A program made the translations under genes and the position numbers. Source: an uncultured bacterium (lineage in GTDB: Bacteria > Oederibacteriota > JAAXVQ01 > JAUVAV01). From it: a stretch of DNA of 64,000 nucleotides. Shown in pieces: positions 19,793 to 24,637 of the stretch (the first letter of the stretch is position 1; every line of letters starts with the position of its first letter). Where the stretch lies: assembly GCA_963710755.1 (NCBI GenBank), contig CAVQBK010000005.1:1-64000 (forward strand). Direction: 5' to 3'. The notes beneath the pieces are model-generated. The model ran no database searches and was not told the DNA's origin. It saw only the letters and a list, made by a program, of their open reading frames with translations.

Positions 19793-20812
19793 CTACTTAT
19801 TTTCCTCAAACTTAAACTCGATTTTTTCATCACCGTTATCTTTGGAGGGATGATATTCCTTGGAGACCAACAGACGATCGCCATTGTAAATATTCAATTG
19901 CACCATGGAGTTTTTAACCAAATGAGCATGCTCCTTATTAAAGAAGGGATCCAGGCTAAGACGGTAACCCGTTTCCAAGGAAGCTGATTCCACACTTTCC
20001 GGATCGCGGTCCACAGTCTTGCGCCAGGGCAACTTCACATCATCCAGAGTTTCCGTATCAATGCCCAGGCCGGAAAGCCAGTAGGACAAATATTCCACTT
20101 CCTGCAGATAGGGCCTGCCTTCATGAATGGGCTTCACCAGCACTTCGAAGGTATAATTGCGGCTGTGTTGATGATGTTTACGATGATGGTGGGCAGGAGC
20201 CTGCTGCGATGTCCGGACCTGTTGTCCGTCTATTTCCACCGACCCTATGCTGGCCTCAGCTCCCGCCGTGGACACATTCACCATGTTGTTGGCACCAAAG
20301 GTCAAGGTAATCTGAGCATTCGGTGTTTGCGGGGACGGTTCGTAAACTTTTTTCTCCAGCAATTTATCGCCTCGGGATATCTTTAAAACAATGCGGGTGT
20401 TTTTCATTTTTTTAAAGTCTTTGCTGTGGGAAACAGCATCGACGGTCTTGTCATAGGTGACAATCAAATTGGCACTCATGATGCCCTGACCGCTGATGGT
20501 TTTAACCCAGGGCAATTCCTGATCAGTGACCATGGCCGTGCTGGTGCTCAGACCGGCCAGGGCGTAATGAATTTGATCCATGCGCTTAAGAAATGGCCGG
20601 CCTTTTTTAATAGGTCGGGCCAGCACTTCCAAAGTATAGGTCACTGCGTTTTCCGGATTGGTCCCTACATCAACCCCGGCTGTATAACTGCCGCCGGTTA
20701 GGTTGCTGTTGATGTTGACCATGCCTTGCACATCGGTTTTGACTTCATAGTTGGCGGCCTGACTTACAGTGGCCAAGGCCAGCAAACAAAGGGTAATAAT
20801 CGTTTGTTTCAT
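19793..20812 (-). CDS. Secreted hypothetical protein with two copies of a ~125-aa beta-rich domain and a His-rich linker
   Basis: Start reassigned to ATG 20812 (GAGGA RBS, signal peptide MKQTIITLCLLALATVSQA); internal duplication YTLEVLARPI..GRPFL..LPWVKT / YTFEVLVKPI..GRPYL..LPWRKT. Confidence 0.8.
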   Translation of the reverse strand: MKQTIITLCLLALATVSQAANYEVKTDVQGMVNINSNLTGGSYTAGVDVGTNPENAVTYTLEVLARPIKKGRPFLKRMDQIHYALAGLSTSTAMVTDQELPWVKTISGQGIMSANLIVTYDKTVDAVSHSKDFKKMKNTRIVLKISRGDKLLEKKVYEPSPQTPNAQITLTFGANNMVNVSTAGAEASIGSVEIDGQQVRTSQQAPAHHHRKHHQHSRNYTFEVLVKPIHEGRPYLQEVEYLSYWLSGLGIDTETLDDVKLPWRKTVDRDPESVESASLETGYRLSLDPFFNKEHAHLVKNSMVQLNIYNGDRLLVSKEYHPSKDNGDEKIEFKFEENK

Positions 20813-20832
20813 GGTGGTCCTCTCTAAAAATG

Positions 20833-20861
20833 AGGTGAGACAGCCCGAAGCTGTCTCACCT
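20833..20861 (-). terminator. Intrinsic terminator-like hairpin after the lipoprotein gene
   Basis: 12-bp perfect stem AGGTGAGACAGC/GCTGTCTCACCT, followed by CATTTTT on the minus strand. Confidence 0.65.
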
Positions 20862-20882
20862 GAATGGGGATTGCTCAATCAA

Positions 20883-21338
20883 CTATTGTACTGACCAAGA
20901 AATTTCACAGGAAGCATCATCCACCGAGGGGGTGAATTGATCTGAAGCTACCACGGTACCGTTCTTTTTGATGGAGAGTTTAACCCGCGTATTGGCAGCT
21001 TTATTTGTTCCATCGGGATGGGTAAGAATATTAAAGGTATCGGAATAAGTGACATTGATCTCAGCTGCTGCGCCCAAGGTCATGGAAGCCGTAGTTGAGA
21101 AAGGCAAGGCTTTATTGTAATAGGTCGCGGAACCGGCCCCTACACCACTGGCCACGTAGGTAAGAAGATCTGCGGTCTGTAAATAGGCCTGACCGGGCGT
21201 GATGGCTTCAGCAGTAACATCGAATTGCACATCCACATTCACCACAGGATCGGTTGGTTTTTCTCCACACCCACTCAAATTCAGGGCCAGTAAACCTGCA
21301 ACGGCCAAAAGGCTGATTTTCCCTACTAATTTCTTCAT
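20883..21338 (-). CDS. Lipoprotein with one copy of the same beta-rich domain
   Basis: AAGGAG RBS, lipobox LSGC, FDVTAEAI..GQAYL..LPFSTT..NTRVKLSI..FTPS. Confidence 0.85.
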   Translation of the reverse strand: MKKLVGKISLLAVAGLLALNLSGCGEKPTDPVVNVDVQFDVTAEAITPGQAYLQTADLLTYVASGVGAGSATYYNKALPFSTTASMTLGAAAEINVTYSDTFNILTHPDGTNKAANTRVKLSIKKNGTVVASDQFTPSVDDASCEISWSVQ

Positions 21339-21890
21339 ATGATTTTCGTCTCCTTTTTTTAATGAATAATTGAAATTAATATAGTTAATTATCCACGACC
21401 TTCAAGCGACGATACCACCACCTCCATCTGAGTTATTCCCCCCAACGTTCCCAAGGCAACTTTCGGGAACCGCTTTAACTATTTGACTGGATAATCCAAA
21501 AATCCTTTCATTATTTTTTAAAAAAAAATAATGGCAGGGAAATAATTTTTTTTACCCCTGCAAAATACCCTTCACATAACAGATAAAACTGACGATTTTT
21601 CTTTTTCTTAGTTTCAGGCGCATCCTTGCAGCAAACAACCGCTACAATTCAGGAATGGGATAATTCCTTGAATATCAAGGAATTTTGAGGTATGGACTAT
21701 TTCAAGTAGCTTTTAAGGTATACCAAAATAATTTACCAAATGCAAATGAGAGAAGCTTTTTATAGTTATTTCCTATACTAATCTTATAAAAAGCTGATAT
21801 ATCGCATCTTTCCTAGGAGTCTGTCGGACTTAAAATCATTAAAAACCTTATGTATGTTGCGTCTCCATTAATAACTGCACCTATATGCTT

Positions 21891-21929
21891 TTTCCCCCTT
21901 TTGCAAAGGGGGATACAGGGGGATTTGAT
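21891..21929. repeat. Inner inverted repeat, left copy (hairpin CCCCCTTTTGCAAAGGGGG)
   Basis: 39 bp, about 35/39 identical to the reverse complement of 23667-23705; abuts the transposase stop codon. Confidence 0.9.
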
Positions 21930-23293
21930 TATACCTGAGATGATTTCAGCCCGTGCAGCCGCTTCATGTTCCGAGCCAGACAGACCAAAGTCCATTCGCT
22001 GCTGACAGCTTGCAAACCTCGCAGCATGAACTGGCGAAAGCCCATGGCAGATTTAATAATTCCAAATACCGGCTCAACCGTGCTTTTACGTCGGGCATAC
22101 AGTTTTCGGCCAGCTGGCATTTGCAACCGCCGCTTCATTCTTTCCACCGCATCAGCACGTTCAGGCAACGGCGGTGGTCCTGAAAAACGTTTTTTTAGCG
22201 ATGGGTAGTGTTGCTCCCGCCTGTTGGCAATATATGGTTTGATCCCCTTGGATTCGCAAAGTTTAACATTGCTTTGGCTAAAGTATCCGCTGTCTGCTAC
22301 CAATGCTTTTGCCTTTCCCAGCTCTTCTGGAAGAGCGGTTAATTGCACAAGTGCAGGCTCAAGTTGTTCTTTATCATTGGTCGCTTGAGTAACATGCTCA
22401 GTGACTATCAACATCGTTTCCATGTCCACCCCGGCTTGCGCATTATAAGCTTGTTCGAACCCGCCACCGGAAACAGGCATGATGCGCGACTCGCCGTCGG
22501 TCAGGTTAACCTGATCTTTTGCTTGTGGGCCTTTATCGCTTGGCGGTTGTGGTTCTGGACCGCGGGATTTTTGACCTCTTTTATTTTCACGCTCACGACG
22601 CTCGGTCAGCTTCTGTTCATACTCTTTTTGGGCTTGTTGGTCACGTTCAACGGCTCGTTGCTTGATGGCTGCTTTGGCTTTGGCAATAGCAGCCAAGCGG
22701 TCTTCGCGACGAGCCAGCTCATCGGGCAGGTTCATCCCGTCAGGCTGGTCGGCCTCATCGGCTGCTTCGGCCAGTTGCAATAGGCGATTCACTTCCGCCC
22801 GGAGTTGCTTCTCTATCTTGTTGGCATATCCCCAGGAAAGGGCACGATGTTTTGATGCATTCGCATGAACCTTGCTCCCGTCCAAACTGATTTTACCGAG
22901 CTTCAATAGTTTCATGTCCTGAGCCAGGACCAGGACTTGTACGAATAATGATTCCAATTCGGGGAGAAATCGTTTGCGGAATTGGGCTATTGTATCATGA
23001 TCGGGATGGGTGTTTGCCGCCGGATAACGAAAAGCTATCGAATCATAAGTGCTGCGTTCCAGCTGACGGCTCGAGAATAGGCCCGTGGCATATCCATACA
23101 CCAGCACAGCCAGCAACATTTCAGGATGATAGGCCGACGATCCCCGCCCCGCATATGATTCTTTTAACTTCGTCAAGTCAAGTTGGGCGACAATTTCCGT
23201 TACAAACCGCGCCAAATGATTGACTGGGAGCCAATCATTCAACGATGGCGGCAGTAAAAAATCCGTATCACGATCGCAGGGAACAAAACTCAT
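21929..23293 (-). CDS. IS1182-family DDE transposase
   Basis: DUF772-like N-terminus (YHPEMLLAVLVYGY, PDHDTIAQFRKR), catalytic motifs LDGSKVHANAS, ADSGY, VEPVFG; ATG 23293 follows GGAGG. Confidence 0.93.
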   Translation of the reverse strand: MSFVPCDRDTDFLLPPSLNDWLPVNHLARFVTEIVAQLDLTKLKESYAGRGSSAYHPEMLLAVLVYGYATGLFSSRQLERSTYDSIAFRYPAANTHPDHDTIAQFRKRFLPELESLFVQVLVLAQDMKLLKLGKISLDGSKVHANASKHRALSWGYANKIEKQLRAEVNRLLQLAEAADEADQPDGMNLPDELARREDRLAAIAKAKAAIKQRAVERDQQAQKEYEQKLTERRERENKRGQKSRGPEPQPPSDKGPQAKDQVNLTDGESRIMPVSGGGFEQAYNAQAGVDMETMLIVTEHVTQATNDKEQLEPALVQLTALPEELGKAKALVADSGYFSQSNVKLCESKGIKPYIANRREQHYPSLKKRFSGPPPLPERADAVERMKRRLQMPAGRKLYARRKSTVEPVFGIIKSAMGFRQFMLRGLQAVSSEWTLVCLARNMKRLHGLKSSQV

Positions 23294-23664
23294 AATGCCT
23301 CCCTGCTTTGCAGGCAAGCTTGAGCCAGGATTTGCTTCAAGACGCCTTCCGTGTTTATGAACACGTCGCGATCGGAAAAACGCAATATCTGCAAGCCTTG
23401 CGTTTTCAAATAACGGTCACGTTCCGCATCGCGGAGGATTCCATCGTCGGTATAATGCTGACCGCCATCCAGTTCAATTACCAGGCTTGCTTTGGGACAG
23501 AAAAAATCCACGATGTAGTTGCCGATGATTTTTTGCCGATAGAATTGCAAGCCGCCAATTTGTTTTCCGCGAAGCCGTTTCCATAGATGTTTTTCAGCTT
23601 CGGTCATGTTATTCCTGAGAACCTGCGAGTTTCGTTTGAGGCCGCGATGGTAGGTTAAAATCAT
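23290..23664 (-). CDS. DUF559 / Vsr-like PD-(D/E)XK endonuclease
   Basis: LRNNMTEAEKHLWKRLR, FYRQ, YIVDFFC, LVIELDGGQH, DAERDRYL, LRF. Confidence 0.93.
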   Translation of the reverse strand: MILTYHRGLKRNSQVLRNNMTEAEKHLWKRLRGKQIGGLQFYRQKIIGNYIVDFFCPKASLVIELDGGQHYTDDGILRDAERDRYLKTQGLQILRFSDRDVFINTEGVLKQILAQACLQSREAL

Positions 23665-23666
23665 TT

Positions 23667-23705
23667 ATCAAATCCCCCTTGATCCCCCTTTGCAAAAGGG
23701 GGGAA
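23667..23705. repeat. Inner inverted repeat, right copy
   Basis: ATCAAATCCCCCTTGATCCCCCTTTGCAAAAGGGGGGAA, 2 nt upstream of the DUF559 ATG. Confidence 0.9.
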
Positions 23706-24094
23706 CTTCGTTATTATACCATATCATCAAACGAAAAAGTCCGACAGGCTCCTAGGTGGAAGAAATTGGGAAATAGCCTTTCTTACTGGAGTGGATTTAT
23801 TACTGGATTAAAAGCTTGCACTCGGTTTATCGCTATCTTTTTTTCAGCTAGCCTATCTTCATTAAATCTACTTGCCGGTCTTGGAATTAAACAATCCACT
23901 GCTATCGTCCGATCAACAGCGCTTCTGGCAGCATCTGGACGGCCATCGCTCTTTTTAATTTTGAGTTTATTATTTTTTACTTGCTATTATATTAGCTTAA
24001 TCTTATATTTTTATTTGCTTATGTTTTAACCATTCCCAATTATGCACATACCTATTTTTCGGGATGGGTATTATCGGCCAAGCCGGAGGTTTCC

Positions 24095-24637
24095 ATGGTT
24101 CCTCGTTCACGCTCTCAAAAACTTATTGCCGTTCGTCCGTATGTACAGTGGACGTCGACCATTTCATTTATTGTGGCCATGGGTTGGTTCCAATTAAATC
24201 TATGGTGGGTATTGCTTGCCGGCATTGCCACCGCACCTTTTGGCGGTAAATTTTTCTGTCGTTGGCTTTGCCCCATGGGATTGTTGATGGAGACCATGTC
24301 GCACAGTCTCGACGAAAAGTCCCGGGCTCAGCAGCATTATCACTATTACAAGCTTGGTTGTCCGATTGCCTGGGCAGGAGGCCTGTTTAATCGCTGGTCC
24401 TTATTTAAAATAAAATTCAACCCGGATAATTGCACGCATTGCGGTAAATGCGACAGCCATTGCTATCTGCCGGCCAATGCCCATCAAACCAGCCTACACC
24501 GGCCTAAGGCGCGCTTCGCCGCCCACACCTACCAATGCTCACGCTGTGGTGCTTGTGTTTCCGCTTGCTCCTCCCAGGCCCTTTCTCTTGGGATTGGATC
24601 CGACCGAACGATCAATACAAAGGAGATAAAATCATGA
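24095..24637 (+). CDS. Membrane 4Fe-4S binding protein (NapH/YccM-like, short)
   Basis: GGAGG RBS, FCRWLCPMG, CTHCGKCDSHC, CSRCGACVSAC. Confidence 0.85.
   Translation: MVPRSRSQKLIAVRPYVQWTSTISFIVAMGWFQLNLWWVLLAGIATAPFGGKFFCRWLCPMGLLMETMSHSLDEKSRAQQHYHYYKLGCPIAWAGGLFNRWSLFKIKFNPDNCTHCGKCDSHCYLPANAHQTSLHRPKARFAAHTYQCSRCGACVSACSSQALSLGIGSDRTINTKEIKS

Follow-up and report, generated by a model that had tools for sequence, protein, structure and literature searches.

The locus described here raises the question of why an IS1182-family insertion sequence (IS) carries a gene for a DUF559 nuclease-like protein within its ends, where this gene came from and what it may do for the element. No function has been assigned to the small members of the very large DUF559 family. 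In the passages covered by our literature search no assay of a small DUF559 protein was reported, and in these, in titles and in abstract openings no description was found of DUF559 inside an IS or together with hairpin repeats. The element sets DUF559 in a defined active context, namely a known transposase, known ends and a cognate hairpin pair.

Organisation of the element

The window is the whole stretch of DNA that was analysed, 64,000 nucleotides in length. Positions 21817-23751 are occupied by an IS1182-family insertion sequence of 1,935 bp with the following features.

21813-21816: CTAG flank, first side (sequence); target site, either duplicated or part of a palindromic end
21817-21831: GAGTCTGTCGGACTT, TIR downstream of the transposase gene; inverted-repeat pair, the same TIR bounds canonical IS1182 relatives
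21891-21929: inner hairpin-plus-tail repeat, downstream arm, 39 nt; inverted-repeat pair, 92% complementary, with a 9-bp stem
21929-23293, minus strand: IS1182-family DDE transposase, 454 aa from its ATG; domains DUF772, DDE_Tnp_1 and DDE_Tnp_1_6; NF033551
23290-23664, minus strand: DUF559 (Vsr-fold PD-(D/E)XK) nuclease-like gene, 124 aa; PF04480, E 8.8e-35
23667-23705: inner hairpin-plus-tail repeat, upstream arm, 39 nt; inverted-repeat pair
23713-23721, minus strand: extended -10 promoter-like site TGGTATAAT between TIR and hairpin, found by eye
23737-23751: TIR at the promoter end, AAGTCCGACAGGCTC; inverted-repeat pair, found in canonical relatives
23752-23755: CTAG flank, second side (sequence)

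The ends, the hairpins, both genes and the ATGA overlap listed in the original prediction were all found in place. Its description as a 'nested' IS is misleading, because only a single IS is present. If the flanking CCTAGG is included, the 15-nt TIRs extend to arms of 20 nt with 95% complementarity. Each arm of the inner repeat contains an 8-9-bp stem (CCCCCTTT/AAAGGGGG). The DUF559 ATG lies 2 nt away from the upstream inner repeat, whose G-rich tail, read by eye, takes the position expected of the DUF559 ribosome-binding site. The DUF559 TGA and the transposase ATG overlap (ATGA at 23290-23293), and the transposase TAA (21929-21931) shares 1 nt with the downstream inner repeat.

The transposase belongs to the IS1182 family (359.5 bits against NF033551, cut-off 270), and its homologues are 452-456 aa long. 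Unlike the single-ORF elements of this family, the element has two coupled ORFs. The second protein is a member of the DUF559 family (119.3 bits against PF04480, cut-off 20.6) and matches the structure 3hrl_A at E 8.7e-20. PF04480 is its only Pfam match, apart from PF18741 below its cut-off. In an alignment, the residues D53, E64, D66 and H70 were invariant in all 25 DUF559 sequences.

Vsr and the homing endonuclease I-Bth0305I have the same fold superfamily as DUF559. The recognition form of Vsr is CTWGG, which the IS junction CTAGG fits. However, the Pfam search gave no match of the DUF559 protein to the Vsr family PF03852, and the element has neither a Dcm partner nor a methyltransferase ORF within it or next to it, so that it differs from Vsr proper. 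I-Bth0305I is a PD-(D/E)XK enzyme and is grouped with DUF559 in the relevant passage of PMC3424549; its structure 3r3p has no sequence match to our protein at E up to 1, and the DUF559 gene does not lie in an intron. The EDxHD family is mentioned in a passage of PMC9403480.

Copies in the host genome

The original prediction regarded the nuclease as cargo within the IS ends rather than as an interrupted host gene. The genome of origin contains four full copies, 99-100% identical over 1,939-1,943 bp, and one fragment, and the flanks of the four copies are all different and unrelated to one another. Since the whole unit including DUF559 is found at four places, the nuclease travels inside the element, as predicted. 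Several copies in unrelated flanks are also the mark of mobility in the IS1182 family.

Flanking CTAG was likewise predicted. We found it at seven of the eight junctions and on both sides in three of the four copies, the exception being the C3 copy with CCAG on one side. Because CTAG is palindromic, it could be either a target duplication or the outermost portion of the element. A search of five relatives gave no empty site for the window copy, the sole match being to its left flank (G001:C77, 71%). The genome G001, which is of the same genus, gave 48 matches, mostly IS ends of 53-140 nt at contig ends, 90-100% identical.

Both genes are intact in only two of the four copies. The C1 copy is frameshifted by a 1-bp deletion in the transposase gene and the C6 copy by a 4-bp deletion in DUF559. 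Such lesions are expected of any decaying IS, and the C6 copy is a natural null allele.

Canonical relatives without DUF559

The element shares its transposase and its ends with a large clade of ~1.6-kb single-gene IS1182 elements. Neither DUF559 nor hairpins occurred in any of 158 relatives with 54-65% identical transposases (0/80 genome and 0/78 metagenome loci), which bears out the earlier statement that IS1182 elements are normally transposase-only. Only 2 of 80 metagenome loci had DUF559 and a hairpin, both 99-100% identical to the window. The median TIR-to-TIR lengths of the canonical relatives are 1,599 and 1,601 bp. With up to 3 mismatches, the TIR was present upstream in 72/80 and downstream in 69/80 genome relatives (68/78 and 70/78 in metagenome relatives). 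CTAG adjoined these TIRs in 68/72 and 67/69 cases in the genomes and in 65/68 and 69/70 in the metagenomes. Canonical elements, for example in Pelobacter propionicus, have the same transposase family and domain set, the TIR sAGyCTGTCGGACTT, CTAG flanks and, as here, a promoter-like site immediately within one of the ends. They are ~1.6 kb long and have one ORF, whereas our element has 1,935 bp, a coupled DUF559 gene and a subterminal hairpin pair.

DUF559 would be dispensable for the transposition chemistry, because these 158 relatives do without it. This bears on the idea of a two-protein transposase in which DUF559 cuts the strand left uncut by the DDE enzyme, as in the TnsA+TnsB pair of Tn7. 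The translational coupling and the conserved gene order inside the element would suit such a partnership, and TnsA and DUF559 are both placed in the PD-(D/E)XK superfamily in PMC3424549. However, canonical relatives with these ends and this target lack a second gene, DUF559 modules also exist free-standing without a transposase, and the TnsA family PF08722 had no match in the element (Pfam search). We regard a TnsA-like partner as very improbable. A complex prediction for the transposase and DUF559 gave a score of zero, i.e. no answer, and counts neither for nor against binding.

Promoter and transcription

In the ends found in G001, G013, G005 and G008, the promoter-like site is conserved and reads TGGTATAAT or TGATATAAT. 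A scan with a two-hexamer promoter consensus gave no minus-strand promoter and missed the extended -10 site. Contigs from RNA libraries, whose strand is not readable and in which DNA carry-over is possible, bridge the DUF559/transposase junction in 3/3 libraries (23193-23703, 23172-23322 and 23194-23483). The flanks 21400-21810 and 23760-24200 were without contig cover in four runs, from which we draw no conclusion. RNA contigs bridging both genes are new here, as are MITEs combining IS ends and hairpins.

With the promoter-like site outside the inner 39-nt repeats and the operon inside, recombination between the repeats might flip DUF559 and the transposase gene away from the end promoter and so switch expression on and off. 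In line with this, a passage of PMC9881135 lists 'DUF559 domain-containing protein' as enriched (odds ratio 14.3) among predicted targets of programmed inversion. We consider such a switch highly unlikely. DUF559 lies at the promoter end in all readable elements (the four copies, L150, G005:C28, G013:C205 and G001:C395), the element encodes no recombinase, and 0/3 element joints change strand in the contigs of four runs, although contigs drop rare variants.

Diverged elements with the same layout

The association of DUF559 with the IS could have been a one-off accident, which was named beforehand as the outcome that would count against the cargo proposal. The layout recurs in diverged elements of related genomes (G005, G013) and of metagenomes, so it is no one-off. 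The locus G005:C28 reads TIR-hairpin-DUF559 (64% aa identity)-transposase remnant-hairpin-TIR; the stop of its 121-aa ORF (L121), at 1866, again falls near the transposase start (residue 2 at 1872). Deletion derivatives with both hairpins were found in G013 and G008. DUF559 matches of 73-79% identity are 122-124 aa long, and the contigs of two of them, 1,940 and 2,418 bp long, equal in size those of the transposase matches P0004 and P0005. These intermediate elements (70-80% identity) could be read in pieces and through equal-sized contigs only, and the assemblies of G001, G002, G005, G010 and G013 contain fragments and deletion derivatives but no full-length copy.

A C-terminal extension is common to 12/12 IS-clade DUF559 rows. 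In a quick tree, all nine IS-labelled DUF559 rows fall in one 15-row clade (SH-aLRT 88), six rows of which are without known context. Judged from these sequences, the association of DUF559 with the IS appears to be old and kept, the cargo being special to a subclade.

MITEs

The lineage is accompanied by MITEs of ~160 bp and ~75 bp in which the IS ends are combined with hairpins. Of eight hairpin doublets examined in the closest relatives (family f1), seven are MITEs with the TIRs of the IS. Six were measured end to end (160-162 bp, with one more partial), and the flanks of these six are CTAG or one-letter variants. The pattern of TIR plus hairpin is numerous in only 7/99 genomes; G002 gave 323 matches. 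By their IS ends, non-coding sequence, target-type flanks and many copies, the short relatives in G002, G005, G008 and G010 qualify as MITEs. Their subterminal DNA is unlike that of the full-length element, and direct descent is unsupported. With their IS ends, the MITEs would depend for their movement on the DDE transposase and not on the nuclease.

Free-standing DUF559 modules and dispersed hairpins

Among the DUF559 homologues of the phylum, the eight closest (53-62%) comprise seven free-standing genes and the IS copy of G005. At all seven free-standing loci a CCCCTTT..AAAGGGG hairpin lies ~60 nt or less from the ORF with no transposase, and the TIR of the element was found at none. In this module the stop codon falls within the inverted tail. 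For 21 more distant homologues, the same regular expression gave no such hairpin up to 150 nt from the ORF. For 11/24 DUF559 genes of the phylum, the inverted-repeat bracket scores above all 135 shifted controls, and the DUF559 paralogues in the window genome show the same design with a different hairpin family. The original prediction took the element for a DDE transposon fused to a DUF559 unit with flanking hairpins. This reading is supported, as the nearest relatives are free-standing hairpin-DUF559-hairpin modules without TIRs or transposase. In those modules the gene stands alone, whereas here it is coupled to and co-linear with an intact transposase gene in an autonomous multicopy IS. 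The arrangement may explain the enrichment of DUF559 among genes with flanking inverted repeats that a passage of PMC9881135 describes.

In the element, the downstream hairpin follows the transposase gene and not DUF559, so that a simple one-step insertion of a module fails to explain the layout. A candidate remnant of a second hairpin at the DUF559/transposase junction reached a local alignment score of 21, no better than the rest of the element, and was rejected.

It had also been suggested that the nuclease may spread the hairpins as RAYTs spread REPs; the IS would then be just one of its vehicles. In REPtrons (REP/REPIN-RAYT) a small gene is, as here, bracketed by inverted hairpin repeats, and the repeat is dispersed or in arrays in relatives. 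Our hairpin repeat family matches 51/99 phylum genomes, up to 403 times (0-3 for a reversed control pattern), and an ungapped scan found TIR-less hairpin arrays in G058 and G009. Close DUF559 proteins (E 1e-30 or better) occur in 8/21 hairpin-rich genomes (at least 10 matches) against 4/78 others, a tally made over related genomes that are not independent samples.

In contrast to REPtrons, whose gene encodes a Y1 (HUH) transposase and whose repeat is dispersed in the same genome, our gene is a DUF559 and the nine sites of the hairpin core in this genome all lie within IS copies or the fragment. Scans for the hairpin core and for TIR plus hairpin found no solo hairpins and no MITEs there. RAYT-like spreading is therefore unsupported in this genome, and the nuclease has no obvious substrate except the IS itself. 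Moreover, the nearby doublets are mostly MITEs with DDE-type ends and CTAG-type flanks. Two repeat-rich genomes, G058 (94% complete; 263 hairpin-pattern matches) and G008 (71 matches), gave no DUF559 match at E 1e-10, and thus the repeats persist without the gene. To our knowledge, PD-(D/E)XK nucleases have no strand-transfer chemistry. Dissemination of the repeats by DUF559 itself seems improbable to us.

Proposed origin and role

Our preferred explanation, which we hold to be somewhat better than an even chance, is that of an active multicopy IS1182-family IS whose ancestor took up a hairpin-DUF559 module. The ancestor of the IS subclade would have done so once, between the end promoter and the transposase start. 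The extended -10 promoter at the right end would drive one mRNA starting at the 5' hairpin, which would encode DUF559 and then, via the ATGA overlap, the transposase, and end at the 3' hairpin. The DDE transposase would move the unit and probably also the hairpin-bearing MITEs with common ends.

As to the role of the protein, we tentatively propose that DUF559 is a selfish nuclease that recognises its own cognate hairpin repeats by structure or by sequence; we give this part distinctly less than an even chance. It could cut 'empty' hairpin doublets, for example in MITEs, and repair could copy in the gene-bearing form in a homing-like manner. Alternatively, it could nick the hairpins of the element and thereby raise persistence. 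Neither a DUF559 cut site nor an empty allele or a conversion event was seen in this analysis.

DUF559 could instead be a pure passenger, either neutral or a host-type repair gene, with the hairpins acting on the RNA as 5' and 3' stem-loops, which would give the transposase mRNA stability or insulation as REP sequences do. The hairpins lie exactly at the predicted mRNA start and right behind the last stop codon; moreover, transposition proceeds without DUF559 in 158 relatives, a frameshift has already removed it from one copy, and some genomes retain hairpin repeats but gave no DUF559 match. However, the gene, its overlap with the transposase gene and the four acidic/histidine residues are kept despite divergence of DUF559 to 59-79% identity. 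The hairpins are kept also in gene-less MITEs, where no mRNA needs protection, and different DUF559 subfamilies with different hairpin families show the same design. The element also has no cytosine methyltransferase partner, and PF03852 gave no match. A passenger is in our view unlikely.

A wider form of the preferred proposal, to which we give about one chance in five, is that small DUF559 proteins and their cognate hairpin-plus-tail repeats make up an undescribed class of selfish nuclease-repeat elements that home into empty doublets. They would correspond, within the PD-(D/E)XK superfamily, to RAYT/REPIN or to free-standing homing endonucleases, the nuclease recognising 'empty' hairpin doublets and driving its own copying into them. 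Fusion with IS1182 would then have added true transposition and MITEs as homing targets, so that two selfish elements cooperate.

Insertion sequences with passenger or accessory genes are known from transporter IS and from IS200/IS605 and IS607 with TnpB/IscB, and TnpB is an accessory nuclease thought to aid retention of the element. As in the TnpB/IscB elements, the extra gene described here lies inside the IS ends and travels with the transposase. In contrast to them, it encodes a small protein-only predicted nuclease of the Vsr fold in a DDE element, with its own hairpins and no guide RNA evident. Such a nuclease would join the few accessory nucleases known on bacterial transposons. With the null allele in C6 and the MITEs as gene-less derivatives, the element offers a natural system for DUF559 function, be it that of a hairpin-specific nuclease, a transposition helper or a homing device.

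In a plasmid collection, DUF559 relatives occurred in 38 records, each of them either distant or truncated, and in the single region inspected (H38) no transposase lies close to the DUF559 relative. A repeated segment of Legionella pneumophila strain Paris is mentioned in PMC12308824, in the passage concerned solely as a hotspot of mutation and recombination. Compared by description only, its transposase family, ends and hairpins being undescribed in that passage, the segment combines a transposase with a DUF559 protein as here and occurs three times.

Structure of the element and its copies

The layout that the original prediction had read from the sequence (CTAG, TIRs, inner repeats, two genes and their overlaps) was borne out by inspection. 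The IS1182-family element contains the following features:

21813-21816 and 23752-23755, CTAG flanks on both sides of the element
21817-21831 and 23737-23751, terminal inverted repeats (TIRs), 15 nt
21891-21929 and 23667-23705, inner inverted repeat with 39-nt arms, 92% complementary
21929-23293, minus strand, transposase, 454 aa from ATG, with DUF772, DDE_Tnp_1 and DDE_Tnp_1_6
23290-23664, minus strand, DUF559 protein, 124 aa, PF04480 with E 8.8e-35

If the palindromic CCTAGG is included, the TIRs extend to 20-nt arms with 95% complementarity. Each inner arm consists of an 8-9-bp stem (CCCCCTTT/AAAGGGGG) and then a second GGGGG "tail". The inner arms enclose both minus-strand genes: the DUF559 ATG stands 2 nt from one arm, the TGA of DUF559 and the ATG of the transposase overlap in the ATGA at 23290-23293, and the transposase TAA extends 1 nt into the other arm. 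The transposase reaches 359.5 bits against the NCBIfam IS1182 equivalog (cut-off 270) and has homologues of equal length, while the DUF559 protein matches the solved DUF559 protein 3hrl with E 8.7e-20. In the available part of one study, DUF559 is grouped with Vsr and the homing endonuclease 3r3p (PMC3424549). The window copy lies in an AT-rich intergenic stretch (21339-24094) where no gene appears interrupted, bordered on one side by a pair of minus-strand ORFs (19793-21338) whose N-termini resemble signal peptides and on the other by a cysteine-rich plus-strand ORF (24095-24637).

In the window's genome (G000; 3.44 Mb, 13 contigs) we found four copies of the element that are 99-100% identical over 1,939-1,943 bp, with about 20 substitutions and two indels between them. 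Their flanks are unrelated, and the junctions read CTAG in seven of eight cases and CCAG in one. Since the copy on C1 has a 1-bp deletion in the transposase gene and that on C6 a 4-bp deletion in DUF559, both genes are intact in two of the four. There is also one dead fragment without a TIR (G000:C4:7170-7468), comprising the promoter region, the hairpin and DUF559 codons 1-76; it lies 1.6 kb from a DUF559 pseudogene that belongs with a second hairpin family (family B, see below). The same-genus genome G001 (500 contigs) gave 48 matches, and the majority are IS ends of 53-140 nt situated at contig ends (90-100% identity), the signature of many unassembled copies. Moreover, in public metagenome runs labelled salt-marsh, marsh or wetland, the IS is present and the window's flanks are absent.

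Very-short-patch repair makes the change from CTWGG to CCWGG. A flank of CCAG(G) instead of CTAG(G), read inward, was seen at three of 20 junctions examined (G000:C3:904317 and both junctions of locus L246 on G005:C98), too few to judge.

Relatives with and without the nuclease

We compared transposase relatives in two sets of 80 loci, one from species-representative genomes and the other from metagenomes. At the genome loci (54-65% identity), no DUF559 match was found within 2.5 kb, and the hairpin was absent from all 80. Neither occurs at 78 of the 80 metagenome loci (56-65% identity); the remaining two possess both and share 99-100% identity with the window element. The canonical TIR sAGyCTGTCGGACTT, allowing up to three mismatches, is present upstream at 72 and downstream at 69 of the 80 genome loci, and at 68 and 70, respectively, of the 78 metagenome loci. 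These TIRs are immediately flanked by CTAG on their outer side in 68/72 and 67/69 cases (genomes) and in 65/68 and 69/70 (metagenomes). As TIR and CTAG are common to the canonical relatives, the window element is bounded by ordinary IS1182 ends. From TIR to TIR these relatives have medians of 1,599 and 1,601 bp (range 1,498-1,748), and the additional ~335 bp of the window element are the DUF559 gene with its hairpins. The DDE element and its cargo form one transposable unit, and the relatives work without the cargo. DUF559 would be dispensable for the chemistry of transposition; that it acts as a TnsA-like second-strand nuclease is among the readings to which we give low odds.

Nor is the element an isolated case: diverged versions in related genomes share its layout. 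The version on G005:C28 (locus L121) has TIR, hairpin, DUF559, a transposase gene with an internal deletion, hairpin and TIR. Its DUF559 is intact (121 aa, 64% amino acid identity to that of the window) and stops at 1866, about where the transposase match begins (aa 2, at 1872); the transposase joins aa 2-62 to 346-452, with 72-77% identity. Shorter deletion derivatives on G013:C205, G013:C86 and G008:C77 retain both TIRs and both hairpins. In a large protein collection, DUF559 matches of 73-79% identity measure 122-124 aa. Two of these are on contigs of 1,940 and 2,418 bp, and transposase matches of 79% identity come from contigs of the same sizes and source, which is consistent with shared contigs but is not proof of them.

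We aligned 25 DUF559 proteins. Each of the 12 rows in the IS group is extended at the C-terminus by about 7-9 residues, up to the transposase start. The full extension is found in none of the 13 free-standing-type rows, 11 of which end at about 115 aa and two of which run 3-6 residues longer. D53, E64, D66 and H70 are invariant in all 25. A quick maximum-likelihood tree with 112 rows places all nine rows labelled IS-borne in a single clade of 15 (SH-aLRT 88), together with six rows that bear no context label. With moderate confidence, these comparisons suggest that DUF559 was captured once by the IS lineage and then kept.

Free-standing DUF559 modules

DUF559 was found in 47 of 99 genomes of the phylum. 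Among the eight closest loci, seven are free-standing (53-62% identity) and the eighth (64%) is the IS copy of G005. At all seven free-standing loci, a CCCCTTT..AAAGGGG hairpin lies no more than about 60 nt from the ORF and a transposase is absent; using the same regular expression, no such hairpin was found within 150 nt of the ORF at 21 more distant DUF559 loci, two of which show variant hairpins by eye. An IS TIR was found at none of the free-standing loci. The modules are strictly built, reading hairpin, G-rich tail, start codon to stop codon, inverted tail and hairpin, with the DUF559 stop codon inside the inverted repeat. The IS has the same bracket, but around DUF559 plus the transposase gene, and the transposase TAA takes the position that the DUF559 stop has in the modules. 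Across the phylum, an inverted repeat scoring above all 135 shifted control pairs brackets 11 of 24 measurable DUF559 genes.

For the three DUF559 paralogues of the window's genome, 39-51% identical to the IS-borne protein, the bracket consists of another hairpin family. This family B (CCTCTCCCC..GGGGAGAGG plus GGTGAGGGG) has the same design as the hairpin-plus-tail repeat of the element (family A) and gives 29 hairpin matches in that genome, some in arrays:

G000:C1:329423-339273, family-B site, including a cluster
G000:C3:84350-85177, family-B site, including an array with a 246-bp period
G000:C4:9011-9300, family-B site; the DUF559 paralogue has an in-frame TGA

As the paralogues have their own hairpin family, nuclease subfamily and repeat family vary together. 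This co-variation is our main argument for a functional link between DUF559 and the repeats, and it is circumstantial. DUF559 would most likely be a nuclease cognate to its hairpins.

At another locus (L114, G009:C2:470500-474500), a free-standing DUF559 of 47% identity lies between three and two family-A-like repeats, all five in the same orientation, i.e. direct and not inverted.

Hairpins and MITEs beyond the element

The original prediction had envisaged, among other roles for the nuclease, a RAYT/REP-like spread of the inner repeats, to be checked by a genome-wide count of solo copies. This was not borne out in the window's genome, where the 19-nt hairpin core occurs at nine sites, all in IS copies or the fragment, and none is solo. 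Elsewhere in the phylum, the hairpin-plus-tail pattern is found in 51 of 99 genomes, with overlapping matches counted separately (403 in G002, 263 in G058, 80 in G087, 71 in G008; 0-3 for a reversed control pattern). TIR-less hairpin arrays are present in G058 and G009, and neither G058 nor G008 has a DUF559 match at E 1e-10. A RAYT-like dissemination of the hairpins by DUF559 thus receives low odds from us, and the hairpin family is older and more widespread than the IS.

One array in G058 (L113, G058:C1:23500-28500) spans about 2 kb without IS ends and holds more than 30 hairpin-plus-tail units about 45 nt apart, in two subtypes of alternating orientation.

Seven of eight convergent doublets fetched from G005 and G008 have IS1182 TIRs and one has none. 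Six of the seven have a TIR-to-TIR length of 160-162 bp and flanks of CTAG or one-letter variants; the seventh is partial. Forms of about 75 bp, in which a pair of IS1182 TIRs encloses one family-A hairpin, occur beside these ~160-bp two-hairpin MITEs in G002, G008 and G010 (e.g. G008:C8:82440-82514 and G010:C213:1543-1618). The TIR-plus-hairpin pattern is numerous in only seven of 99 genomes, six of the window's family and one of its sister family, with 323 matches in G002. Hence, a prolific family of MITEs that retain the hairpins beside the ends goes along with this IS lineage. Since MITEs and the full-length element differ in subterminal DNA, we do not claim that the former descend directly from the latter. 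For the nuclease, we tentatively favour, at less than even odds, a selfish role in which it would either convert empty doublets, these MITEs for example, in a homing-type process or nick near the ends in a way that favours persistence.

IS that carry passenger genes are already known, as are transposons with accessory nucleases. In the available portions of the literature searched, we found no mention of a DUF559 gene within an IS or of its hairpin bracket, although the element may already be named in ISfinder. The nearest published hints to a DUF559-bearing IS come from two papers, as far as their accessible text goes: PMC12308824 mentions in passing a repeated "transposase + DUF559" segment in Legionella pneumophila strain Paris, and in PMC9881135 "DUF559 domain-containing protein" is enriched among predicted inversion targets. 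That the inner repeats form an invertible switch is nevertheless improbable, as DUF559 lies at the promoter end in all eight elements with readable orientation.

Expression

An extended -10 site (TGGTATAAT) can be made out by eye on the minus strand at 23721-23713, between the right TIR and the hairpin; a two-hexamer promoter scan did not report it. The ends of G001, G013, G005 and G008 retain the putative site as TGGTATAAT or TGATATAAT. Transcription starting about 7 nt downstream would place the hairpin at the extreme 5' end of the mRNA. That the hairpins act at the RNA level, with DUF559 a mere passenger, nonetheless seems unlikely to us, and a nuclease cognate to the hairpins remains our preferred reading. 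Contigs from three metatranscriptome runs span the DUF559/transposase junction (23193-23703, 23172-23322 and 23194-23483); they carry neither strand nor level, and DNA carry-over is possible. A single mRNA may encode both proteins; it would begin at about 23706-23708 and terminate at the 3' hairpin.

Metagenome and metatranscriptome contigs also contain internally deleted forms of the element, with joints 22090>22931, 22423>23064 and 23223>23512 that skip 840, 640 and 288 nt, respectively. In one 188-nt contig from an RNA library, a TIR is joined directly to hairpin sequence.
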